In this document: in pieces, positions 6,051 to 57,358 of the stretch
How the letters are laid out: every line of letters starts with the position of its first letter
Numbering within the stretch: position 1 is the first letter of the stretch
DNA from: Bacteroidales bacterium
GTDB lineage: Bacteria; Bacteroidota; Bacteroidia; Bacteroidales; VadinHA17
Assembly (NCBI GenBank): GCA_049512815.1
Contig: JBEKWS010000020.1
Location: 13,093-77,092 of the forward strand
DNA length: 64,000 nt
Direction of reading: 5' to 3'
The notes under the pieces: generated by a model
Databases searched by the model: none
The model's input: the letters and a program-made list of their open reading frames with translations, nothing else
Told to the model about the DNA's origin: nothing
Position numbers and translations under genes: made by a program

Positions 6051-7556
6051 ATGAAAAAACTGAGACCCTTACTCTATTGCATGGTTTTGTCCGGTTTGTT
6101 TTCCGGGAATCTGCTGTCGCAGGAACCTGCTGTTATTAAAATTGACTTTGACCGTAAAATAGGAGCAGTTGATCCCAACATTTACAGCGCTTTTGTTGAA
6201 CCTACCCGTGCCGTATATGGTCCTATTTATGATCCTTCTTCTCCTCTTGCTGATGAAAACGGATTCAGGAAGGATTTTATTCAGCTTATTAAACAGCTGA
6301 AAATACATGCACTCAGATGGCCGGGAGGTAATTTTGTCTCCGGCTATGATTGGGAGGATGGAATCGGACCTAAAAATCAGCGTCCTGCAAAACTGGACCT
6401 TGCATGGCATCAGATTGAAACAAATCAGATGGGAACTGATGAGTATGCAAAATTTTGCAGCCTTATCGGAGCTGAAAATTTCATTTGTATAAATGAGGGA
6501 ACAGGCACACTTGACCAGGCGAGACATTGGGTTGAATATTGTAACGTTGAAAAAGGAACATACTATTCTGATCTCAGGAGGAAGTATGGTAATGAAAAGC
6601 CTTTTAATGTAAAATTCTGGGGGCTTGGAAACGAAATCGACGGACCATGGCAGATGGGACAGAAAAATGCAGAAGATTATGTCAAGTTCTCCCTCGAAGC
6701 AGGCAAACTGATGCAATGGGTGGATAAGAATATTAAGCTGGTTGCAGTCGGTGCTTCAAATTACAAGCCGGATATGGCCTGGATTGACTGGAACGATTAT
6801 GTACTGACACATATGGCCGGCAGTATTGATTATCTTTCAGTACATAGGTATGCTACTGAGGCACTACCAACTGGCGACCGGAGCTTCTCAAACATGATGT
6901 GCCTTGGTCTTGATGTGGACCAAAAGATAGATATGGTAAAAGCACTGATTGAAAAAGCTATGATGAAATCAGGATCAAAAAGACCTATTTACATTTCATT
7001 CGACGAGTGGTCTGCAGGCTGGGGCAATACCCTTACCGGATCATTAATGGTTGCACAGCATCTGAACTCCTTCATCAGACATGCGGATATAGTTAAAATG
7101 TCCAATTTTACCATGATTTCCGGTCTTGTTGGCTCTTCCCCCGACGGAGATTACAGGAATGCTGTGTTCAATGCATTCTATCTTTATTCAAATAACTGCT
7201 ACGGCAATGCTCTCAATGTTTATACCAGCTGCGAAAAGTACAGTAATAAAGTATTCAATGATATACCTTATCTTGACGTAACAGCTGTATTAAACGATTC
7301 AACTAAGAAACTGGTAGTAAATGTTGTCAACAGGCATGAGACAAAGGACATTCCTGCAGATATAGTTTTACAATCCGGGAATTTTACCGAAAGTGCAACT
7401 ATTAATGAGGTAAACGGAAAGGCAATAGATGCTGTCAACACCAAGACCGATGAGGCAATAGCTATTAAAACCAAAGACCTGAAGTTTAAAGGAAATACCA
7501 TTCGTTACAGTTTTCCTGCACACTCATTGACACAATTAATAATTCCAATTAAGTAA
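6051..7556 (+). CDS. GH51 alpha-L-arabinofuranosidase, copy 2 (secreted)
   Basis: A 501-aa paralogue of the 4227-5732 product. The catalytic motifs are the same (WGLGNEIDGPWQMG, YISFDEW) and the signal peptide is nearly identical. Confidence 0.9.
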   Translation: MKKLRPLLYCMVLSGLFSGNLLSQEPAVIKIDFDRKIGAVDPNIYSAFVEPTRAVYGPIYDPSSPLADENGFRKDFIQLIKQLKIHALRWPGGNFVSGYDWEDGIGPKNQRPAKLDLAWHQIETNQMGTDEYAKFCSLIGAENFICINEGTGTLDQARHWVEYCNVEKGTYYSDLRRKYGNEKPFNVKFWGLGNEIDGPWQMGQKNAEDYVKFSLEAGKLMQWVDKNIKLVAVGASNYKPDMAWIDWNDYVLTHMAGSIDYLSVHRYATEALPTGDRSFSNMMCLGLDVDQKIDMVKALIEKAMMKSGSKRPIYISFDEWSAGWGNTLTGSLMVAQHLNSFIRHADIVKMSNFTMISGLVGSSPDGDYRNAVFNAFYLYSNNCYGNALNVYTSCEKYSNKVFNDIPYLDVTAVLNDSTKKLVVNVVNRHETKDIPADIVLQSGNFTESATINEVNGKAIDAVNTKTDEAIAIKTKDLKFKGNTIRYSFPAHSLTQLIIPIK

Positions 7557-7599
7557 TCTGATCTGAGTACAGGAAATTAAAGACGTAAAAAATTGTCCT

Positions 7600-7648
7600 G
7601 GCCTCACTGGAACGTATCAAAAAGATACCTTAAGTGAGGCCTTTTTTT
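7600..7648 (+). terminator. Intrinsic terminator of GH51 copy 2
   Basis: A 9-bp stem ggcctcact/agtgaggcc with an inner gtatc/gatac stem, followed by TTTTTTT. Confidence 0.7.
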
Positions 7649-7809
7649 AAGGGATGTATAATTCAGTGTGCTCTTTATAATGAGAATCGGTAACATATTT
7701 AAACCCGGAATAGCTTCTGCGAAAGAAAACGGGTTTCCATAATATTGGACTGAAAACTCAGGGGTATCAGACATAATTGGTACATTTACCATAAATAATA
7801 GTCAAAAAC

Positions 7810-10384
<2,575 letters not shown>

Positions 10385-48903: not shown

Positions 48904-50823
48904 CTACTTCAGATTCCAATAAATAACATAACGTTGTTTATCAATCTGGTAATAAGGGATCATGGTGATTTCTTTTGATGCTACACCAGTGGTTTTAAAT
49001 ACCAATTGTTTACCATTTACAGGAATCAGCCAATCATTTAATTTTCTGCCATTAATATTTAATGTGGTTACAATATTATCGGGAACAGCAGTGTTTCTGA
49101 AATCAAGCTGGTCTTTTCCATATGGAGCAGGGGCTTCAATCCCCTCTGTCCCCATATCACCGGCAAGAACTATCGGACCATAAACTACCGCTGCCATATT
49201 GGGATTGTCGTTTGTTGCTACGAGGCGCAATGACATCGGATAAGTAATATCTATTTTATCTCCAGTTTTCCAGGTTTTGTTCAATACAATGTAACTGCCT
49301 GGTTTCTGGCTGATTTTAACGTTTCTACCGTTTATTTTAACAGCAGCGCCCGATGTAGCCCATGACGGATAACGAATATTTAAAGGCACATTTACATCTT
49401 TTATTTCTTGTATTGTAAGGTGCGTGGTAGCTTCTTCAGGATAACCGGTTTGTTGTTTCAATTTAATGCCCTTTTCTTTCCAGGTCAACTCTGAAGGTAT
49501 AAAAAGATTTACATAAATGCTCTTGTCATCATGATAGTATATGCCTTCACCATATTTTGCATGGTTTTCAAATCCGGTACCTACGCAACACCAAAACGAG
49601 TTTTCTTTAGTACAATACGTTTTAAACGTGCCAGGTGCATAGGACAAAAAATACATTACCATGCCGGTTTCCGGATCTTGTGAGGCCAGTATATGATTGT
49701 AAAGAGCTTGTTCATAGTAATCTGCATATTTTGCGTTTGCTGTCCAGGTAAACAGGTGACGTGTGAGCTTCAGCATGTTGTATGTATTGCATGATTCAGT
49801 AGTTGCATTTGATATGTGCTTTGATATCTGATCAGGTCCAAAGAAAAATTCATGATCACTGTTCCCCCCTGTTACATAGGTATGGTGATCTATCACTGTC
49901 TGCCAGAAAAAATCGGCAATATTTCTTTCTCTTTCATTTCCAGTTACTTCATAACCTCTGGCTTCACCAATAATTTTCGGGATTTGAGTGTTAGCATGGT
50001 TTCCGGCTAATTTGTCTTCCTTCCGGGCCAAAGGGTCCAAAATACTGTGATGAAAGAAGCATTCTGCAAGTTTTTTGTCATTTATATTTCCGGTAATTGC
50101 ATACAAATTGTATGCTGCTTCCATCATACCACCAAACTCTGTTTTGTGCATAATTGCCAACTGTTCAGGAGAGAGGTTTTCTAGTTTGTGGTAAGCCCAG
50201 TCGCTCATTTTTACTACAATATCCAGTGCTTGTTTATTACCTGTATATTGATACATATCGATCAGACCTTCCATCACTTTATGCAAGGTGTACCATGGTG
50301 CCCAAACTGGTTTGCCTTCTATTACACGATTGATTAAATTCTGAGGGAATGCGCTTAAATAACCACCCTGATTTATCACTTCCTGAATCTCAGCCAATGC
50401 ACTTACCAGAGAATCAGCCTTGCTTTTATAAGCAATCTCACCTGTGGAAGCATACATGAGGGACAGGCCTGAAAGCACATGCCCCAAAGAATGACCTCTT
50501 AATTCAACATCCAAACCTTCCCATCCACCAAATGGCCGGGCATTCGTAGACATGCCTGCATCAACCCGCCAATTGTGCAGTAACTTTTTATTACTAATAC
50601 TTAACAACCACTTGCCGTCACGCTCCATATTTTCTTTGAAACGGCTGTCGAGCAGTCTTATATCACTTAAATCAAAGCTGTATGCTTTAACTTGTATTTG
50701 CGGTTTTACAGTTTGAATAGATGAAAACTGACCAACATACTGAGAAAACACTATTGCCGTATTAAGGCAGCATAGGATTAATATGACAGGTAACTTTTTA
50801 ATTAGATTGTTTATCATATCCAT
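48904..50823 (-). CDS. GH127 (DUF1680) beta-L-arabinofuranosidase-family protein, secreted
   Basis: A 639-aa protein with ..GHSLGHVLSGL.. and ..WYTLHKVMEGL... It has an E-x-C motif (TESCNTYNML) and a CC motif (SFWCCVGTGFENHAKY), matching the Zn/Cys catalytic site of GH127. Confidence 0.85.
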   Translation of the reverse strand: MDMINNLIKKLPVILILCCLNTAIVFSQYVGQFSSIQTVKPQIQVKAYSFDLSDIRLLDSRFKENMERDGKWLLSISNKKLLHNWRVDAGMSTNARPFGGWEGLDVELRGHSLGHVLSGLSLMYASTGEIAYKSKADSLVSALAEIQEVINQGGYLSAFPQNLINRVIEGKPVWAPWYTLHKVMEGLIDMYQYTGNKQALDIVVKMSDWAYHKLENLSPEQLAIMHKTEFGGMMEAAYNLYAITGNINDKKLAECFFHHSILDPLARKEDKLAGNHANTQIPKIIGEARGYEVTGNERERNIADFFWQTVIDHHTYVTGGNSDHEFFFGPDQISKHISNATTESCNTYNMLKLTRHLFTWTANAKYADYYEQALYNHILASQDPETGMVMYFLSYAPGTFKTYCTKENSFWCCVGTGFENHAKYGEGIYYHDDKSIYVNLFIPSELTWKEKGIKLKQQTGYPEEATTHLTIQEIKDVNVPLNIRYPSWATSGAAVKINGRNVKISQKPGSYIVLNKTWKTGDKIDITYPMSLRLVATNDNPNMAAVVYGPIVLAGDMGTEGIEAPAPYGKDQLDFRNTAVPDNIVTTLNINGRKLNDWLIPVNGKQLVFKTTGVASKEITMIPYYQIDKQRYVIYWNLK

Positions 50824-50951
50824 ATTATTTTAATTAGAACAATTAGTCGCTCAACTGATAATTCTTTTATACTTCAACTGGACAAATATATATTTATTTA
50901 TCTCACAGTATAATTCAAGTCATGTAATTTTTAAGTTGCTGTCAATAATCC

Positions 50952-52049
50952 TCAATCCTTTATGTATCCTGCCTCCCGATAATATTTTTCAGCACCGGGA
51001 TGCAGAGGTACACCGAAATTCTTCCAGACAGAGTTCGGATCGTAAGTATATATCCTGATGAACCATTTCAGAGCCCTGTGGTTTACATCAATAGCTTTTG
51101 CCAGATCATAGGCGGCCTGCTCAGGTGTATCATCACGCGCAAAGAAAGATTCTCCTGATCTGCCCAGAGTTTTTATCCGGCGGTTAATGCCCTTTAGCAG
51201 ACTGTGCTGAACCTCGACAAATTCGGCATCCACATTCTGCTGTGCAAGGAGTTTCAACAATTCTTCGGGCAATTCAAAAAAATACAGATCGAATTTCTGA
51301 CTTAAGGTTGTCCATGAGGAAGATTCGGGATTTAAAGAAGGACTTGCCAGAAAGCCGGAAACTATATCAAAATCTCCTTTTAAGGCTTCTTCCATGGTAA
51401 CCCCTATTTTTCCTCCCCAGGCTTTAATATCATCTGCAGATATACCATAATATTTCAGAATGGTCATCATATTGTTATCGGCACCCATAATTCTTACTGA
51501 CTGCTGCATTTGTTTTATTCGGGCAAAATCTCTAATTCCCGATTCTTTTCTGGATGCCACCAGAAAATAGAACGGATCCTCGATTTTTGCTATCAGGCGT
51601 AGATTGCGAAAGGGTTCTTTGTTACCCGGAGTCCCATTGTAAGCTGAGCTCAGCATGGCACTTGAAGTTACACCAAAATCAACACGGGCATTTATACGGA
51701 CATTAGTGCCATCTCCAAGATTTATTTCATCAAGTGGTGGCGGAAAGTCATGTGTCGAGACCAGACGCGGATCATACGACCTGTTGCAGTTACGGCAAAG
51801 AATAACTGAATAGCCATATGGTTCCATTGCTTTTTTAACGTAATCTCCAAGTTCTCCCCAGGGACATCCGCTCTCGCATGCTGCAGCCATCACCGGCCTT
51901 TTAACATCCCAGCCGGTTTTACCGACATCAATGGTTTCCTGAGCATGGATCAGATTTTCCGGTAGAAATATTGCAGTTAAAAAAATTACAGCAATTATAC
52001 TGCCAATTTTTGCAGCCAGTTTTGATGATGATGTTTTCATTTTAAACAC
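50952..52049 (-). CDS. TAXI-like (TRAP-type) periplasmic solute-binding protein homologue, orphan
   Basis: A 365-aa protein with an N-terminal anchor/signal. The C-terminus ..GVPLHPGAEKYYREAGYI.. is typical of TAXI-family binding proteins, but the N-terminal Gly-rich TAXI motif was not seen. No TRAP membrane genes are nearby. Confidence 0.5.
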   Translation of the reverse strand: MFKMKTSSSKLAAKIGSIIAVIFLTAIFLPENLIHAQETIDVGKTGWDVKRPVMAAACESGCPWGELGDYVKKAMEPYGYSVILCRNCNRSYDPRLVSTHDFPPPLDEINLGDGTNVRINARVDFGVTSSAMLSSAYNGTPGNKEPFRNLRLIAKIEDPFYFLVASRKESGIRDFARIKQMQQSVRIMGADNNMMTILKYYGISADDIKAWGGKIGVTMEEALKGDFDIVSGFLASPSLNPESSSWTTLSQKFDLYFFELPEELLKLLAQQNVDAEFVEVQHSLLKGINRRIKTLGRSGESFFARDDTPEQAAYDLAKAIDVNHRALKWFIRIYTYDPNSVWKNFGVPLHPGAEKYYREAGYIKD

Positions 52050-52227
52050 AAATATAGAAAAGTCTCACAAAGACAATTACACAAAGATAATTATTATGAA
52101 TGCAACGAACTCAGCAGAGATATTCTAAGATCAAACTATCTTCCCAGCCTTCCCCAACCCTACCCTTAATACACATTTGGTTGGTAACTCGAAATTATAC
52201 AATTGATATGTTACTGTAATATGACAA

Positions 52228-52419
52228 GGAGATCCTTCGCTTCGCTCAGGATGACATGAATATCAGGTGGTTATGGCGTGGTATAAGTGGCGATTCGCAA
52301 CACTGATTATCATTAAAAAAAGACATGACTTTGCGAATCGCCACTTCTGCCACCCCTCCCATTATGTCTCCAAATGAGCTGTCATCCCTGTCCGCACGGC
52401 TGGCGGACTCGGGATCTCC
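52228..52419. repeat. ~190-bp nested-palindrome (long imperfect hairpin) element, MITE/REP-like
   Basis: The outer arms are ggagatcc (52228-35) / ggatctcc (52412-19). The second tier is aggatgaca (52249-57) / tgtcatcc (52380-87). A third tier is ggtgg/ccacc. The core is a perfect 16-bp stem aagtggcgattcgcaa (52285-52300) / ttgcgaatcgccactt (52331-52346). Confidence 0.8.
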
Positions 52420-52436
52420 CAGAACCATCTACTGAT

Positions 52437-52640
52437 TTAATAGAGGTATAAGTTGTCATAATAGCAGGAGTGCAAAAAATATTTTAAATAAACCCCCGGA
52501 ATTCCGAGCGGAGCAAATTTCCCCAGGGCAAGAATATACTTATCTTTGAAAAAATGATTAAGGACAAATGAGGCTAATAGAATTACCCATAAAAAAGTCA
52601 ATCCTATTGTTGCTATTATCTTAAGAGTTTTTCTCTTCAT
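52437..52640 (-). CDS. Small hypothetical membrane protein
   Basis: A 67-aa ORF with one or two hydrophobic helices. I recognised no family. It lies in the AT-rich block. Confidence 0.35.
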   Translation of the reverse strand: MKRKTLKIIATIGLTFLWVILLASFVLNHFFKDKYILALGKFAPLGIPGVYLKYFLHSCYYDNLYLY

Positions 52641-52669
52641 GAAAATTCCTCCTACAAAATTTAAGTTAA

Positions 52670-53170
52670 TTATTTCTTATCATATTCAGCAATCGGGGAA
52701 GGCTTTCCTAGATACATTTTCATATTAAATTTGTATGTTGTAGCATTTTCTACATTATGAATTTCACCATAAGTATGAGCATATTTGGCAATATTAGTAA
52801 AAACTATCCTTACTGGGATAACCATGCCTTCTTTAATTGAGACTGAAATGGGTTGACTAAAGTCACTCAGACCAACATAAAAGGTATATTTTCCCGGACT
52901 TTTTGAGAGTCTTAAACCGACCTTATCTCCGAATATCAATTTAGAAGCAGTTACCCATCCTTCAGGAGGTGAGTCCTTAGTAGGATTAGCAACAGTATAA
53001 ACTGGAAATGAAAAACCTATATTACCTTCACTCTTTAGATAATAAAATTCAACATATCCCTTTGGGCTTCCCTCCGCAACTCTGTCAATTTTTCTGATTG
53101 GTGCACAACCTGCAAGAATTGAAATAAAAATCAAGTAGGCTAACGAATAAATTAATTTAATTTTTATCAT
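52670..53170 (-). CDS. Hypothetical lipoprotein
   Basis: A 166-aa ORF with a signal peptide and lipobox (..ISILAGC). I recognised no family. Confidence 0.55.
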   Translation of the reverse strand: MIKIKLIYSLAYLIFISILAGCAPIRKIDRVAEGSPKGYVEFYYLKSEGNIGFSFPVYTVANPTKDSPPEGWVTASKLIFGDKVGLRLSKSPGKYTFYVGLSDFSQPISVSIKEGMVIPVRIVFTNIAKYAHTYGEIHNVENATTYKFNMKMYLGKPSPIAEYDKK

Positions 53171-53275
53171 AATTTTAAAGAATTTAATTAGTAATTGAAA
53201 TTAATTATTTTTTATTTATTTTATCATAAAATTGATTATATATTGTTCTGCCTAAATGCAGACTATAATTGGCAA

Positions 53276-53333
53276 AAGAAAAAACCCCCGAAGATTGAAT
53301 TGGATTATTAAATGGTTATGCGATGGGGGTTTT
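53276..53333 (-). terminator. Possible terminator hairpin downstream of the SPFH fragment
   Basis: aaaaccccc (53281-89) pairs with gggggtttt (53325-33) around a long loop. On the minus strand it is followed by a T-rich run. Confidence 0.35.
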
Positions 53334-53356
53334 AAATAAATCAGTTTTATCTTTTC

Positions 53357-53629
53357 TTAATTTTTATCAGAATTAAATATCATTGGCAAACCATCTTTGG
53401 AAGATCCAATGATAATAACTTTTGTATTTGGAGATTCTGCTACCTTGAGTGTTGCTTCAATTCCTTTCCATTCAAGAAGTTGTGGGCTAATTCCCTGTGA
53501 AACTATCTGTTGAAAATTATGAATTCCTCCTGCCTCAATACTCTTTCTATTTGCTTCCTGCTTTTCTTTTAAAAGTACAAATTCCATTTTCTTTGCCTCT
53601 AGCTCCATGGATAATTTCTCTTGCACACG
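53357..53629 (-). pseudogene. 5'-truncated SPFH/band-7 (prohibitin/HflC-like) gene fragment, C-terminal ~90 codons only
   Basis: The translation ..ELEAKKMEFVLLKEKQEANRKSIEAGGIHNFQQIVSQGISPQLLEWKGIEATLKVAESPNTKVIIIG.. matches only the C-terminal coiled-coil and tail of SPFH proteins. The frame opens at a stop codon at 53630-53632, exactly where the opposite-strand S11 homology starts. Confidence 0.5.
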
Positions 53630-53946
53630 TTACTGATGCTTCTGGGAGAACTATTGCAAAAGTTTCAGGTGGAATGGTTACAAAACACAGCAGACTTAAA
53701 GCAAATCCAACAATTGCAATGTTTATTGCGAAAAGAATTTCTGAAAATATGAAAGAAAAAGGAATAAAATCTTTGTATGTGAGAATACGTGCAAAAACCG
53801 GGAGTACTGGCCCCGGACCAGGTGCTAATGCAATAATAAAAAGTCTGTCAAGAGAAGGGTTTAAAATAATAAATATTTTGGATACTACAAGGGTTCCGCG
53901 TGGTGTACCAAAGAAACAAGGCGGAAGAAGAGGTAGAAGAGTATAA
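53623..53946 (+). pseudogene. rps11: 5'-truncated archaeal-type ribosomal protein uS11 gene
   Basis: The translation is ..AHVTDASGRTIAKVSGGMVTKHSRLKANPTIAMFIAKRISENMKEKGIKSLYVRIRAKTGSTGPGPGANAIIKSLSREGFKIINILDTTRVPRGVPKKQGGRRGRRV. The SGGM.(V/T)K..R..S/NP motif, the inserted GS(T)GPGPGA loop and the GGRRGRRV tail are archaeal/eukaryotic uS11 features. About 20 N-terminal residues are missing. Confidence 0.7.
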
Positions 53947-53989
53947 AAAGGGGTTCTTAAAAAGAACCTACAACAGTAAAAAATAAAAA

Positions 53990-54697
53990 ATGGAAAACAT
54001 AAGCAAAGGAGAAAACAAATTTGTATTCAAAGCTGAAATAGAAGACAGCTTAATTAATTCTATAAGAAGATATGTTGGACAAATACAAATTGCAGCATTT
54101 GATGAAGTTGAAATATCAAAAAACGACTCTCCTCTTTATGATGAAACTATTGCATATAGATTGGGATTGATTACTTTAAAACAAAATGCAAAGAAAGAAG
54201 GAAAATTAAAGTTAAACTCACAAAACAAGGGATATGTTTATTCTGGCTCTCTTAAAGGAGATTTTGATGTTGTTTATGATAAAATGCATATAATTCTTTT
54301 AAGTGAAGGGCAGGAATTAGAGATAGTTGCTAATGTAAAAATGGGAAAAGGACAGGATCATGCTAAATTCTCTCCTGGGATAATGAATTACAGACAGATT
54401 TCAGAAATATAAGTTGATAAAGAAATTGCTGAAAAATTATAAAACACTTTCCCAAACATTGAGATGAAACAAAAAGGTGATAAATACTTGATAGTCGATG
54501 ACAAAGAAAAAGAAGTCACTGATATCTGCGAAGGACTTGCAGAGAAATACGAAAAGAAGATTGAGGTAAAACCAACTGAAGAGATTGTGGTGTATTTGGA
54601 ATCTTTCGGTCAAATTGACGCTAAGAACATATTTACAAAAGCAGTTGAGGCATTGAAAAAAGATATGAGTGAATTAGGAAAGAAATTCAGCAAGTAA
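53990..54697 (+). pseudogene. rpoD: Archaeal-type DNA-directed RNA polymerase subunit D (Rpo3) gene with two in-frame TAA codons
   Basis: The 140-aa ORF (..FKAEIEDSLINSIRRYVGQIQIAAFDEVEISKNDSPLYDETIAYRLGLI..AKFSPG..) and the 77-aa ORF (..IVVYLESFGQIDAKNIFTKAVEALKKDM..) are in the same frame. They are separated only by TAA codons at 54410-12 and 54440-42. Together they span a full-length small RpoD. The gene starts 43 nt after the S11 stop. Confidence 0.65.
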
Positions 54698-54825
54698 GTA
54701 TTTTTTTATAATAGTTATCTAAATATAACCTTTCTATAAGTTTAATATAATCGTTGCACAAGATTATGAAAGAATTTTTCACAATAACTATAACATATGA
54801 AAGTATTTTCATATGTATTTAGCAA

Positions 54826-54859
54826 AAAAAAGGATAACTCACATGGAAAATCCTTTTTT
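54826..54859. terminator. AT-rich hairpin, possible bidirectional terminator
   Basis: aaaaaaggat (54826-35) pairs with atcctttttt (50-59) around a 14-nt loop. A second perfect 10-bp palindrome acatatgaaa/tttcatatgt lies just upstream at 54792-54817. Confidence 0.3.
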
Positions 54860-55459
54860 ATTACACTTTGAGATCATTTAATATTTAGTGGGAGATCTGG
54901 CTATAAGCACTATAAAAGAAATAAGCCCTATAATCAATGAAAGAAGACCAAGAGAAAGGAAAATTAGCCCAATTGTTTTTCCTTGCATATGCCCAACAAA
55001 CCAATATAAAAGGAACATTTCTTAATAAAAATCGCATAACTTACTACCAGCTTCGAGAAATGTTTAAAGGTTGGGAAGGGGGAAACTTGCCTATAAAAAG
55101 TAATAAATTCTTAAGTTTAATAATATGTTACCATTATTGTGAAGAAATACACGGCAGGCAGGTTTGTATACCCGTCCGAACGGTTTCAGCCGGGCGGGCT
55201 TTGTGGTTAAAAAGGACTTTTTCAACAGCCCCATGTATTTTCACATCAATTGTAACATTAAAGAAAAAATCAATCCCCTCTTTTATTATATTCGTAAATG
55301 TCTTGTTAAGAAATGTTAAATTCCAATTAACCAATAAAATCAAAGTATTTATCTTAAAATATTATCCATTATAAGTTAGTTTGAAGTTCCCACTTATGAA
55401 CTAATATAGTAATTTTAATGCCCACAAGTGAAACATTCTATTTATTAACTATCTTAACT

Positions 55460-56698
55460 ATGAAAAAAGCCATCATTATCTATTTGTTTTTAAGTATTCT
55501 GAACCTGGCAGGAGGCACAGGCCTGGAAAAGAAGATTTCCAGATTCGATTTTACCGGACCCCGTGATCCGTCTTTTATAAGAGGTTTCAATTATACACCT
55601 GCCAACGTGGCTTCTCCACGGCATCATATCGATTGCTGGGTGCATTATGACTCAGCAACAATTAAATTTGATCTTGACCTGGCAAAAAGTCTCAATCTAA
55701 ACCAGGTAAGAATTTTTGTTCCCTATGCAGTTTATACAGAGGATATAGAAGCTCTCCCTGCAAAACTGCAACATTTCGTACGCGAATGCCATAAGCGGGG
55801 GATAGGGGTCATGCCTGTTATCGGAAGCGGACCATGGATAAGGGATACATCACTGCGTGTACAGGGAAGAGCATGGGTTCAGTTTCTTGTCAACTCAATA
55901 TCGAACGAACCCGGACTTGCATTCTGGGATGTAATGAATGAGCCTGACTGGCCAATAACTCCCAAAGAGAGAGTTTTGCGTAATTTTGAAAACTGCAAAT
56001 TCATGGCCAAAACCTTTCATGAAATTGACCCGAATACTCCTGTTACTATCGGGATGGCATTTGTAGATGGCATGATTGAACTGGCTGATTATGTGGATGT
56101 ACTGCAATTCCACGATTATATGCAGACCCGCGAACAGATAAGAAACAATATCGCAAGGGCAAAAGAATTTGCAGCAAAAGCTAAAAAGCCATTGATAAAC
56201 GGTGAAATAGGTTGTATTGCGCGTGCCAATCCTTACGATATTACCCTCCAGGAACATATGAATGCAAAAGTAGGATGGTATATTTGGGAACTGATGATTG
56301 TCCGCAAAGGATGGGGACCTGTCCATGGTGTTTTTTATGAAGATGGGAGTGTCAGGGACCCGTCGATTGCAGCTGCAATCATGGGTTTTTTTCGCAAACG
56401 TACTGCCGATATACTTCCGGCAGTTCCAGACAAGGAAGGCTGGGTCACGAAGGTGATAGACCAGAGTGATAAATGGCTTAAAGATCCTGCCGGAACATGG
56501 AAAGACGGATTGGATCTTGCCGAAACCGCCGCCCACCTGCTGGAAGCCGGAGAACTTTCTGCAATGAGAATTCCACCCACTCAGGAGGTTGAGATGCTTC
56601 GTCAGGGGCAAGTCGACCAGAAGGCTCTTAAAGGGCTTATTATAAAATTCAAAGATCAACTTGAACCTTACAAGTTAATCCAGCCGCGTAATAATTGA
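55460..56698 (+). CDS. Clan GH-A (beta/alpha)8 glycoside hydrolase (GH5-like), secreted
   Basis: The acid/base motif is ..AFWDVMNEPDWP.. and the nucleophile region is ..PLINGEIGC... The signal peptide is MKKAIIIYLFLSILNLAGG. The start was moved to the ATG at 55460. Confidence 0.7.
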   Translation: MKKAIIIYLFLSILNLAGGTGLEKKISRFDFTGPRDPSFIRGFNYTPANVASPRHHIDCWVHYDSATIKFDLDLAKSLNLNQVRIFVPYAVYTEDIEALPAKLQHFVRECHKRGIGVMPVIGSGPWIRDTSLRVQGRAWVQFLVNSISNEPGLAFWDVMNEPDWPITPKERVLRNFENCKFMAKTFHEIDPNTPVTIGMAFVDGMIELADYVDVLQFHDYMQTREQIRNNIARAKEFAAKAKKPLINGEIGCIARANPYDITLQEHMNAKVGWYIWELMIVRKGWGPVHGVFYEDGSVRDPSIAAAIMGFFRKRTADILPAVPDKEGWVTKVIDQSDKWLKDPAGTWKDGLDLAETAAHLLEAGELSAMRIPPTQEVEMLRQGQVDQKALKGLIIKFKDQLEPYKLIQPRNN

Positions 56699-56911
56699 TT
56701 TGTTATGTGCACTTGAACCATATCTTTTAAGATTTTACGACCAAATATTTCCGAAACTAACTTCTAGACACGATTTATTTTTCTCTTTTAATATTCAGTC
56801 ACTATTTGCGTTAAATTTAAACTTTACTTCAATAATTAATTATGACTTTTGCCTTCATCATAATTCAAATTATCTATTGTTTGTTTATCTAACTCTAAAG
56901 GACCTTTTACT

Positions 56912-57358
56912 ATGAAAAAAGCTTTAACATTTTTATCGATTATGCTGTTTACAGTAAATCATCTTTGCTCAGGACAAACGACTGAATATCCGCCTGATTC
57001 AAAGCCGGCATCTACAAATATTCAGAATGGCCAATATCCGCGAGTAACTTCTGATCTCAGGGCAATTTTCAGGGTCAAAGGTACTGATGCCCAAAAAGTG
57101 CAGATTCAGCTTGGGAAGACTTATGATATGGTAAAGGATGATCAGGACTTCTGGACGGTTACTACCGATCCGCTTGTGCCGGGATTTCACTATTACTCCC
57201 TTGTTATCGATGGGATGAAGGTCTCCGATCCTGCCAGTGAAATTCTTAAAAAGGCAGGTATAAATAATGTAGTATTTTATCAATCTCCGGGAACAGCTCA
57301 CGAATGGCTTACCTGGAGAAGATCTTTATACCAGTTTGCACAGCTTCTGTTCAAGTAA
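56912..57358 (+). CDS. Internally deleted CE1-type esterase paralogue: signal peptide + Ig-like N-domain fused in frame to the last ~35 residues
   Basis: The 148-aa product aligns with the N-terminal ~110 aa of the 61622-62785 product (..PADSKPA.TN....YPR..S.LR.IFRV....AQKVQ..LG..YDM.K.D...[18 protein letters not shown]...SDP.SE). It then jumps directly to ..[26 protein letters not shown]. The alpha/beta-hydrolase core, including GLSMGG, is absent. Confidence 0.7.
   Translation: MKKALTFLSIMLFTVNHLCSGQTTEYPPDSKPASTNIQNGQYPRVTSDLRAIFRVKGTDAQKVQIQLGKTYDMVKDDQDFWTVTTDPLVPGFHYYSLVIDGMKVSDPASEILKKAGINNVVFYQSPGTAHEWLTWRRSLYQFAQLLFK

Follow-up and report, generated by a model that had tools for sequence, protein, structure and literature searches.

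A probable relic of Woesearchaeota DNA in a polysaccharide-utilisation region of a Bacteroidales bacterium

Genes and composition of the locus

The window, by which we mean the whole stretch of 64,000 nucleotides that was analysed, contains a Bacteroidota-type polysaccharide-utilisation region with SusC/SusD, GH2, GH51 and GH127. Within this Bacteroidales region lies an archaeal block of ~2.6 kb, reaching from 52431 to about 55018. An original prediction, made from the sequence alone, had described an AT-rich block at 52430-55400 that carries an archaeal-type S11-rpoD gene pair, and all the elements that it named were recovered in place in the ORF list and in the composition. The GC content is 0.312 over 52431-55050 and 0.409 in the rest of the window, where the lowest value among stretches of equal size is 0.365. 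The left limit of the prediction holds at 52431, while the right one has to be moved inwards, the archaeal part stopping near 55018 and host DNA being present from 55252. The features of the block and its surroundings are the following:

50952-52049, minus strand: host gene of a TAXI-family (NMT1_3) solute-binding protein, the left neighbour (Pfam NMT1_3, E 1.5e-21; TIGR02122)
52143-52430, no strand: bacterial-type hairpin/repeat element, GC 0.42, abutting the archaeal left end and absent from empty-site relatives
52437-52640, minus strand: intact ORF of a 67-aa single-pass membrane protein, presumably archaeal (ORF list, synteny, GC 0.31)
52670-53170, minus strand: intact ORF of a 166-aa lipoprotein with a LAGC lipobox, of Woesearchaeota origin by its identity to protein P0002
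53357-53617 (ORF called to 53626), minus strand: archaeal SPFH/prohibitin-like gene reduced to a 3′ fragment, with the 5′ end lost at the joint (P0005, L022)
53618-53620, no strand: joint at which truncated SPFH meets truncated S11; its 3 nt (CTC) agree with neither side, and there is no real microhomology
53621-53946, plus strand: 3′ two-thirds of archaeal uS11 (rps11) (NF007176 profile, identity to Woesearchaeota)
53990-54697, plus strand: archaeal rpoD/rpo3 pseudogene, full length, 235 codons (NF001988, alignment of relatives)
54698-54860, plus strand: archaeal region 3′ of rpoD, conserved and non-coding, with a palindrome (DNA homology to L006, L007, L011 and L022 until about 54858-54860)
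54878-55018, minus strand: ORF of a 46-aa membrane protein, convergent with rpoD, presumably archaeal (ORF list, synteny in L022 and in the P0002 contig)
55019-55251, no strand: stretch of about 230 nt between archaeal and conserved host DNA, GC 0.35, with a GC-rich hairpin at 55155-55174
55418-56698, plus strand: host gene of a clan GH-A-like glycoside hydrolase (GH), the right neighbour (weak Glyco_hydro_2_C TIM-barrel match)

When S11 and RpoD were compared with profile HMMs, both scored best with archaeal models and not with bacterial ones, in agreement with the archaeal assignment of the two genes in the original prediction. The uS11 fragment (53617-53946) obtained 103 bits (E 1e-29) with the NCBIfam archaeal S11 model NF007176 and 91 bits with TIGR03628, versus 42-46 bits with bacterial S11 models. 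It is also truncated at its 5′ end, as had been predicted: its alignment to NF007176 begins at position 22 of 132, and its 103 bits miss the curated cut-off of that model (182 bits), so that it is a gene fragment and not a functional member of the family. The first ~50-54 codons are missing. Homology to archaeal loci starts at 53621, from residue 51 of the 159 residues of the L002 protein, whose residues 1-50 have no counterpart, and the fragment shows 95-99% amino acid identity to Woesearchaeota S11; it has neither a start codon nor a promoter context.

RpoD, the gene of which starts at 53990, 43 nt past S11, obtained 138.8 bits (E 2.5e-40) with the archaeal RpoD model NF001988 over model positions 16-262 of 266, versus at most 26 bits with bacterial rpoA models, and its identity to Woesearchaeota loci is 81-85% in amino acids and about 81% in nucleotides. 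The score is below the curated cut-off of NF001988 (153 bits), and the reading frame is interrupted by two in-frame TAA codons that the original prediction had overlooked, at 54410-54412 (codon 141) and 54440-54442 (codon 151). Relatives have TAT/CAA and AAA/AAG/AGG at these positions, and both stops were found in every bacterial-context contig examined. This rpoD is a pseudogene. Recoding of TAA was considered and rejected: S11 and RpoD both terminate in TAA at conserved C-termini, and the internal TAAs are single-base changes from Tyr/Lys codons. Private changes at otherwise invariant RpoD sites, counted as a gauge of relaxed constraint, number nine in the window, and eight and 18 in two long-branch archaeal sequences.

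The two small membrane/lipoprotein ORFs and the 5′-truncated SPFH fragment that had been predicted are indeed there, but the archaeal origin of the lipoprotein and of the SPFH piece had been missed. The lipoprotein is 70% identical to P0002, which a 49 kb archaeal contig encodes beside S13-S4-S11-RpoD, and full-length homologues with 25-31% identity are encoded downstream of rpoD in L002, L007, L008 and L022. The SPFH piece retains the C-terminal part of the protein, with 81% amino acid identity to P0005, and its homology is cut at 53617. At the DNA level, 53400-53617 is 80.7% identical to positions 8314-8097 of L022, a Woesearchaeota-type contig in which the SPFH homologue lies about 2.5 kb downstream of rpoD. 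Sequence homologues of the 67-aa and 46-aa ORFs were not detected. The former is probably archaeal, because its position is the one that small TM genes have in a donor-like contig, between rpoD and the lipoprotein gene (the order in the P0002 contig is lipoprotein of 164 aa, 72 aa, 74 aa, then rpoD converging). The latter occupies the place of the 72-74-aa TM gene of such contigs, is probably archaeal too, and may be the right-most archaeal feature. The small lipoprotein and membrane genes have kept open reading frames, though they are probably not in use.

None of these genes can do the work that it did in the archaeon: S11 lacks its N-terminal third, start and promoter, RpoD is interrupted by its two nonsense codons, and of SPFH a stump is left. 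Outside the block the window is bacterial, as had been predicted, and a tblastx comparison of the whole window with the archaeal loci revealed no further archaeal fragment; a second copy of the block was not found in the window either. There were no Rfam matches at E ≤ 1 over 51900-55600 and no tRNA in the window, and a promoter and terminator scan gave signal at background level only.

Occurrence in independent samples and the host site

At least 10 samples (ENA, JGI, Logan) contain the block, and its bacterial neighbours and two stop codons recur along with it. Carrier contigs were collected by exact matching to the lipoprotein, a choice that biases how conserved it looks. Its ORF is present in 13 contigs, of which the 10 listed come from as many samples. 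In the five contigs that extend past both ends of the block, the host genes to the left and to the right are the same; those that reach a host gene on one side have the same one there, and one Logan contig is 100% identical over 52229-56278. The block is found in two host haplotypes, in which the flanking genes differ by 9.4% and 7.2% and the segment 51801-55600 by only 0.18%, with six differences in the block. As judged from these assembled contigs, the block appears to be physically part of the recipient genome, reproducibly so in independent data.

These data bear on one of the three explanations put forward originally, a chimeric metagenome assembly of Bacteroidales and Woesearchaeota genomes. 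An abrupt change in GC and two truncated genes that meet head to head are what such a chimera could leave behind, and organisms of both kinds do occur together in one sample, ERZ25039554 (L022 and L026). However, the junctions are identical in ENA, JGI and Logan assemblies made by several assemblers, across at least 10 samples and in two host haplotypes, bacterial DNA flanks the block on both sides within single contigs, and the permuted gene order described below would demand three coincident mis-joins. Moreover, every copy carries the two nonsense codons in RpoD, which are incompatible with a living donor. We regard a chimera as extremely improbable.

A rival reading is partial domestication, in which the intact lipoprotein and 67-aa ORFs would be expressed and useful to the bacterium, explaining why the block is retained and nearly identical across haplotypes. 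These two ORFs have stayed intact next to three broken genes, and the 0.18% difference over 51801-55600, against 7-9% in adjacent genes, could mean recent spread. Yet six haplotype differences in the block are too few to measure selection, the exact-match retrieval biases the apparent conservation of the lipoprotein, and recombination imports ending at the heterology would account for the mosaic pattern just as well. Domestication seems to us improbable, and the block may well be neutral to its carrier.

Relatives of the bacterium, at 88% identity, provide the empty site. The TAXI protein has 863 homologues, some from named Bacteroidales or Bacteroidetes, and a syntenic 412-aa GH gene lies beside TAXI in L025, L026 and L027; with the boundaries used here neither the TAXI nor the GH protein gave an exact match, as gene callers use other start codons. 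In two of the relatives GH and TAXI are adjacent, their spacer measuring 836 nt (L025) and 272 nt (L027). Homology between the window and L025 breaks off at 52142; at 55252 it sets in again, for L027 as well, and what follows is ordinary host sequence in front of the GH gene. The hairpin element on the left has an inverted repeat (52275-52300/52331-52356) and a 27-nt motif (52230-52256) that is 100% identical to an intergenic site in unrelated bacterial contigs (L023/L024); a 60-aa ORF in it has no Pfam match and is probably spurious. On the right, 55019-55251 had no match among archaeal loci, bacterial loci or the rest of the window. The insertion site has a compound history, because these two stretches are unexplained or separate insertions. 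L025 holds other inserts in the TAXI-GH spacer, and some strains have a further break at 54722.

A mobile element was another of the original options, and it was not borne out. The spacer does look like a hot spot, given the inserts in L025, the hairpin element at 52143-52430 and the break at 54722, and the block might accordingly be imagined as cargo of some unrecognised element (a transposon, an integrative element or a virus) travelling between archaea and bacteria. But no integrase, transposase or recombinase was found, and a repeat search revealed no flanking direct or inverted repeats, no terminal inverted repeats and no target duplication bounding the block. In the donors the genes of the block are ordinary chromosomal core genes, the window holds a single copy, and 2.9 million viral contigs contained no relatives of the lipoprotein and RpoD. 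Carriage by a mobile element is thus very unlikely.

Gene order in the donor lineage and the joint

The S11-rpoD region of the window has ~81% nucleotide identity over 1.1-1.25 kb to Woesearchaeota MAG contigs and to metagenome contigs. The matching contigs all carry DUF655-S13-S4-S11-RpoD at GC 0.29-0.33, confirming that S11 followed by rpoD is the archaeal operon order. The block shares with this S13-S4-S11-rpoD (alpha) operon the 43-nt gap between S11 and rpoD, about 81% nucleotide identity and the conserved 3′ region, but it is without S13, S4 and the first third of S11, has two stops in RpoD and is fused to an SPFH stump. The closest relatives of the block are Woesearchaeota contigs and those of its flanks are Bacteroidales, two different domains. 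Judged by these similarities, the block from 52431 to about 55018 is DNA of a Woesearchaeota (DPANN) chromosome set between two bacterial sugar-utilisation genes. The remaining original option, a relic of transfer from an AT-rich archaeal donor, is thereby supported, and the donor lineage can now be named.

The block had been described as a mosaic. Its pieces instead fit a single donor neighbourhood, since homologues of the lipoprotein and SPFH genes adjoin rpoD downstream, in convergent orientation, in related Woesearchaeota. Each of the five archaeal contigs with such homologues has them past rpoD and pointing towards it, and none has them upstream of the operon; gene order past rpoD varies among Woesearchaeota relatives. 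In comparison with L022, window 53400-53617 corresponds to 8314-8097 and 53621-54858 to 11859-10695, on the same strand but with the order swapped. The donor order would run from mid-S11 through rpoD and its 3′ region, followed on the opposite strand by the 46-aa, 67-aa and lipoprotein genes and by SPFH up to its middle; in the bacterium this donor-like order is found circularly permuted. The two outer ends of the block would have been adjacent in the donor; this adjacency is taken from synteny in relatives, because the true donor is unsampled and the best match is about 81% identical in nucleotides.

The joint was defined by a three-way comparison of the window, both L022 sites and four other archaeal loci, and reads GGATAATTT / CTC / TTGCACACG. 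A 15-nt inverted match between sites close to the left end of the block and to the joint (52415-52429/53635-53649) was dismissed as chance, as shuffled sequences average 2.4 such matches.

Proposed origin and its implications

We think it probable that the block is a non-functional relic of archaeon-to-bacterium DNA transfer, which would have arisen via a circularised or concatemeric fragment and illegitimate recombination. About 2.6 kb of a Woesearchaeota chromosome would have entered an ancestor of this Bacteroidales population. In the simplest mechanism the fragment would have been end-joined into a circle or a head-to-tail concatemer, so that the broken ends of SPFH and S11 met at 53617/53621. 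The opening of the circle or concatemer would have fallen between the 67-aa and 46-aa genes. Illegitimate recombination with little microhomology would have placed it in the 0.3-0.9 kb spacer of the divergently transcribed TAXI and GH genes, where it became fixed.

No circle would be required if a longer linear archaeal fragment had been inserted and the part from mid-SPFH to mid-S11 deleted later, or if two fragments of the same donor had been co-inserted. Dead DNA normally suffers internal deletions, Woesearchaeota differ among themselves by rearrangements downstream of rpoD, and the joint has no diagnostic signature, all of which would suit such a course. It requires, however, that the donor had its SPFH-lipoprotein cluster on the upstream side of the ribosomal operon, or that two pieces were ligated together by chance, whereas the five archaeal contigs with homologues uniformly have these genes downstream of rpoD and converging on it. 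In addition, the 46-aa TM ORF is still downstream of rpoD, and the outer ends of the block map where neighbouring small TM genes sit in the P0002 contig. Linear insertion is possible, although we consider it unlikely.

Archaeon-to-bacterium transfer is known, for example from the archaeal genes in Thermotoga and Aquifex, and documented interdomain transfers mostly involve operational (metabolic) genes that are intact and used. As in Thermotoga and Aquifex, archaeal DNA was here fixed in a bacterial chromosome and is recognised by phylogenetic affinity and composition; unlike there, the genes are informational (uS11, RpoD), were truncated on arrival and are decaying, and the donor is a DPANN archaeon. 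A second parallel is provided by NUMT/NUPT insertions and Wolbachia-to-insect transfers, in which dead DNA of a physically associated genome is captured in break repair. Both involve non-functional pieces of essential genes, junctions that are blunt or poor in microhomology, and rearrangement or concatenation of the pieces, and both lack mobile-element machinery; but those insertions are in eukaryotic nuclei with a resident donor, while here the recipient is a free-living bacterium and a physical association with the donor is hypothetical. A literature search on Woesearchaeota-to-Bacteroidetes transfer gave nothing directly relevant.

The relic might record a physical, cell-to-cell association, a Woesearchaeota episymbiont living on this Bacteroidales lineage, with DNA leaking from symbiont to host much as Wolbachia or organelle DNA leaks into its host, a reading that we find doubtful. 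A bacterial host for some Woesearchaeota/Pacearchaeota is so far a proposal, made from their murein-lytic proteins (PMC8204110). If the association were true, dead archaeal fragments in bacterial genomes could mark pairs of DPANN archaea and bacterial hosts, and if more such relics exist in the lineage, the question of bacterial hosts for DPANN archaea would become directly testable.

Under the preferred reading of an end-joined, transferred fragment, the block would be a rare direct trace of DNA of a DPANN archaeon passing into a bacterium, a transfer caught raw and unselected, with essential informational genes broken and decaying, yet fixed in a natural bacterial population. Woesearchaeota DNA would then reach the cytoplasm and the chromosome of Bacteroidales in nature, and insertion would be possible without mobile-element machinery, apparently via an end-joined (circular or concatemeric) fragment. 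The block also matters for the quality control of MAGs: CheckM-type tools would flag it as contamination, and archaeal marker genes on a bacterial contig are not necessarily that.

Archaeal genes within a polysaccharide-utilisation region

By its gene content the window is a Bacteroidota polysaccharide-utilisation region, with a SusC-like TonB receptor, SusD, GH2, a GH51-type arabinofuranosidase, GH127, Sde182-like proteins and esterases. An AT-rich stretch had been predicted between the genes for a TAXI-family (NMT1_3) solute-binding protein (TAXI) and a clan GH-A-like glycoside hydrolase (GH), and indeed the GC content there is 0.31, versus 0.41 in the remaining window, where the lowest value among equal-sized stretches is 0.365. 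The TAXI homologues are from Bacteroidales or Bacteroidetes wherever they are named. The following features were found:

50952-52049, minus strand: TAXI gene, host neighbour of the block
52143-52430: bacterial hairpin element of normal GC content, abutting the archaeal DNA
52431 to about 55018: archaeal DNA, the middle part of the segment that varies among host relatives
52670-53170, minus strand: 166-aa lipoprotein ORF, 70% identical to the homologue P0002
53357-53626, minus strand: SPFH fragment, 81% identical to the homologue P0005
53617-53946, plus strand: uS11 fragment, recognised by archaeal S11 profile models
53990-54697, plus strand: archaeal rpoD pseudogene, matching NF001988 and starting 43 nt after S11
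55019-55251: about 230 nt that separate the last archaeal feature from conserved host DNA and contain a GC-rich hairpin (55155-55174)
55418-56698, plus strand: GH-A-like hydrolase gene, host neighbour of the block

The original prediction of archaeal S11 and RpoD genes was upheld by profile models, the archaeal ones scoring far above those of bacterial S11 and RpoA. The translation of 53617-53946 obtained 103 and 91 bits with archaeal S11 models versus 46 and 42 bits with bacterial ones, and as the profile alignment begins at model position 22 of 132, the S11 gene is 5′-truncated. The rpoD frame matched archaeal NF001988 with 138.8 bits (model positions 16-262 of 266), and bacterial RpoA models gave at most 26 bits. 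Two in-frame TAA codons interrupt this frame, at 54410-54412 and 54440-54442. In 10 archaeal relatives the first site is TAT or CAA and the second AAA, AAG or AGG, and rpoD is uninterrupted in all 10, with longest ORFs of 235 codons in seven and 242 in three. Because S11 and RpoD both terminate in TAA at their conserved C-termini, TAA is a genuine stop here. The RpoD gene of the window is a pseudogene. Private changes at otherwise invariant RpoD sites number 9 in the window, and 8 and 18 in two long-branch archaeal sequences.

A scan for RpoD homologues in one genome per GTDB species gave four loci of 74-84% identity, three labelled Candidatus Woesearchaeota archaeon and one labelled only 'archaeon'; JGI metagenomes provided six further RpoD loci of 81-85% identity. 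At the DNA level, the best archaeal locus shares about 81% identity with 53618-54697, and homology to the archaeal loci runs on past the 3′ end of rpoD to about 54860. The order DUF655-S13-S4-S11-RpoD is present in every archaeal locus reaching far enough upstream, and the GC content of the loci, 0.29-0.33, is in the range of the block. The suggestion of a transfer relic from an AT-rich archaeal donor is supported.

P0002 is encoded on a 49 kb JGI contig carrying L21e, Rpb4, DUF655, S13, S4, S11 and RpoD in order and, past RpoD on the opposite strand, a 74-aa gene, a 72-aa gene, lipo164 and Bax1-I. Weaker full-length lipoprotein homologues lie downstream of rpoD in four archaeal contigs (L002, L007, L008 and L022). 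The P0005 gene belongs to the Woesearchaeota-type contig L022, where it converges on rpoD from a site about 2.5 kb downstream, and 53400-53617 shows 80.7% DNA identity to L022 8314-8097. By these matches the remainder of the block (the lipoprotein and SPFH parts) is also archaeal. None of the three recognisable block genes can work; the lipoprotein ORF and two small membrane ORFs are open.

Recurrence across samples and haplotypes

The 140-aa RpoD ORF and the lipoprotein ORF were found on 13 contigs, and the 10 among the matches listed represent 10 samples (ENA ERZ27250059; JGI 3300052918 and six 33000786xx; Logan SRR7028477 and SRR35605324). Identical host genes flank the block on each side in the five contigs reaching both sides, and contigs reaching one host gene carry the same gene on that side. 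Over 52229-56278 the Logan contig matches the window at 100% identity. Besides the haplotype of L013, the contig from which the window derives, there is a second one (L012, L014, L015 and others), which differs from the window by 9.4% in GH127-TAXI and by 7.2% in the GH gene (49521-51800 and 55601-57050, compared with L012/L014). Across the central segment that holds the block (51801-55600) the haplotypes differ by 0.18%, at 7 of 3800 positions; six differences are within the block, too few for measuring selection. This pattern is a recombination mosaic: either imports of divergent alleles ended at the border of the heterologous block, or the block spread recently between strains along with its near flanks. 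The outer flanks, beyond the divergent genes, differ by 0.3-0.8%.

Both rpoD nonsense codons are present in all six bacterial-context contigs checked directly, which represent the two haplotypes; wherever a contig covers the 140-aa and 77-aa ORFs, they are called identically. The bacterial-context contigs carry S11 from residue 51 onward only, and S4 and S13 are absent. A chimeric assembly of bacterial and archaeal DNA, which had also been proposed, is refuted by the recurrence in independent samples and two haplotypes and by the shared nonsense codons, since a chimera with a living archaeon should contain an intact rpoD.

A one-base deletion at 53484 in the second haplotype (L012, L014, L015, L016, L019, L020 and L021) frameshifts the SPFH stump and alters the ORF calls there, a further decay of the relic. 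Three contigs, L015, L020 and L021 (JGI 3300078627, 3300078626 and 3300078611), diverge from the window directly after 54722, 25 nt beyond the rpoD stop, and all end in an identical unrelated stretch of 123 nt. This stretch did not occur again among the contigs compared and is probably a multi-copy element, perhaps an IS end, that entered the relic in part of the strains.

Insertion site and permuted gene order

GH and TAXI are direct neighbours in two host relatives (L025 and L027; TAXI protein about 88% identical), with a minimal spacer of 272 nt in L027 and one of 836 nt in the 547 kb contig L025. Homology between L025 and the window stops at 52142 and that of both relatives restarts at 55252, so the variable segment is 52143-55251. 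Its hairpin element has arms of 26 nt (52275-52300 and 52331-52356) and a 27-nt core, GATCCTTCGCTTCGCTCAGGATGACAT, that recurs with 100% identity between genes of the unrelated bacterial contigs L023/L024; an Rfam search gave no match, and the element is possibly a bacterial intergenic repeat of wide occurrence, or a MITE. Gene callers placed a 60-aa ORF on it. At the other end, neither the archaeal nor the bacterial loci gave a match to 55019-55251, nor did the remaining window. In the L025 spacer (7165-8000), 572 nt are other inserts, which include REP-like GC-rich hairpins such as CCGTGGGTACAACCCACGG; such different inserts at the same place indicate that the GH-TAXI spacer tolerates insertions and is a hot spot for them.

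In every archaeal contig S11 and rpoD are followed by convergent small TM genes, the lipoprotein gene and SPFH. In the window a 67-aa ORF, the lipoprotein ORF and the truncated SPFH (minus strand) precede the truncated S11 and rpoD (plus strand) and a 46-aa ORF (minus strand). On L022, 53400-53617 maps to 8314-8097 and the adjacent 53621-54858 to 11859-10695, on the same strand with the order swapped. The block is a circular permutation of the gene order in the archaeal contigs, in which the truncated ends of SPFH and S11 are fused and the opening separates the two small TM genes. At the joint the sequence is GGATAATTT, CTC, TTGCACACG; the three bases CTC fit neither of the parent sequences, and meaningful microhomology is lacking, a structure typical of end-joining or illegitimate recombination. 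An inverted match of 14/15 nt pairs 52415-52429 with 53635-53649, no more than 15 nt from the block's left end and the S11 joint, respectively; it is probably due to chance, as shuffles gave 2.4 equally good matches on average.

We lean, if narrowly, towards entry through a circle or concatemer: a Woesearchaeota cell, lysed or attached, would have supplied a fragment of about 2.6 kb, and end-joining would have turned this into a circle or head-to-tail multimer. Its integration, independent of homology, would have been in the promoter-distal part of the GH-TAXI spacer, so that the two host genes and the regions just upstream of them were spared. The main alternative, one longer linear insert with a later internal deletion or two co-inserted fragments, draws on the variability of the region downstream of rpoD among archaeal relatives and on a true donor that is unsampled; it requires a donor gene order that the five informative archaeal contigs all lack, and we consider it unlikely. 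The proposal of mobile-element cargo is unsupported, as profile searches found no recombinase, the block showed no terminal repeats, target duplication, RNA family match or tRNA, and viral contigs held no relatives of it.

Relation to known transfers

Interdomain transfer itself is already known, and the block adds one more case, of the unselected, failed kind. In its anatomy it resembles dead inserts of the NUMT or Wolbachia type more than the classical archaeal genes that function in bacteria. Some Woesearchaeota and Pacearchaeota were proposed as possible episymbionts of bacteria (Castelle et al., 2021; PMC8204110), and the presence of a relic from Woesearchaeota in a chromosome of Bacteroidales fits this proposal without proving it. 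In practice, a bacterial contig that carries archaeal marker genes is not always contaminated. ENA sample ERZ25039554 holds both the donor relative L022 and a host relative, L026, as a co-occurrence only.
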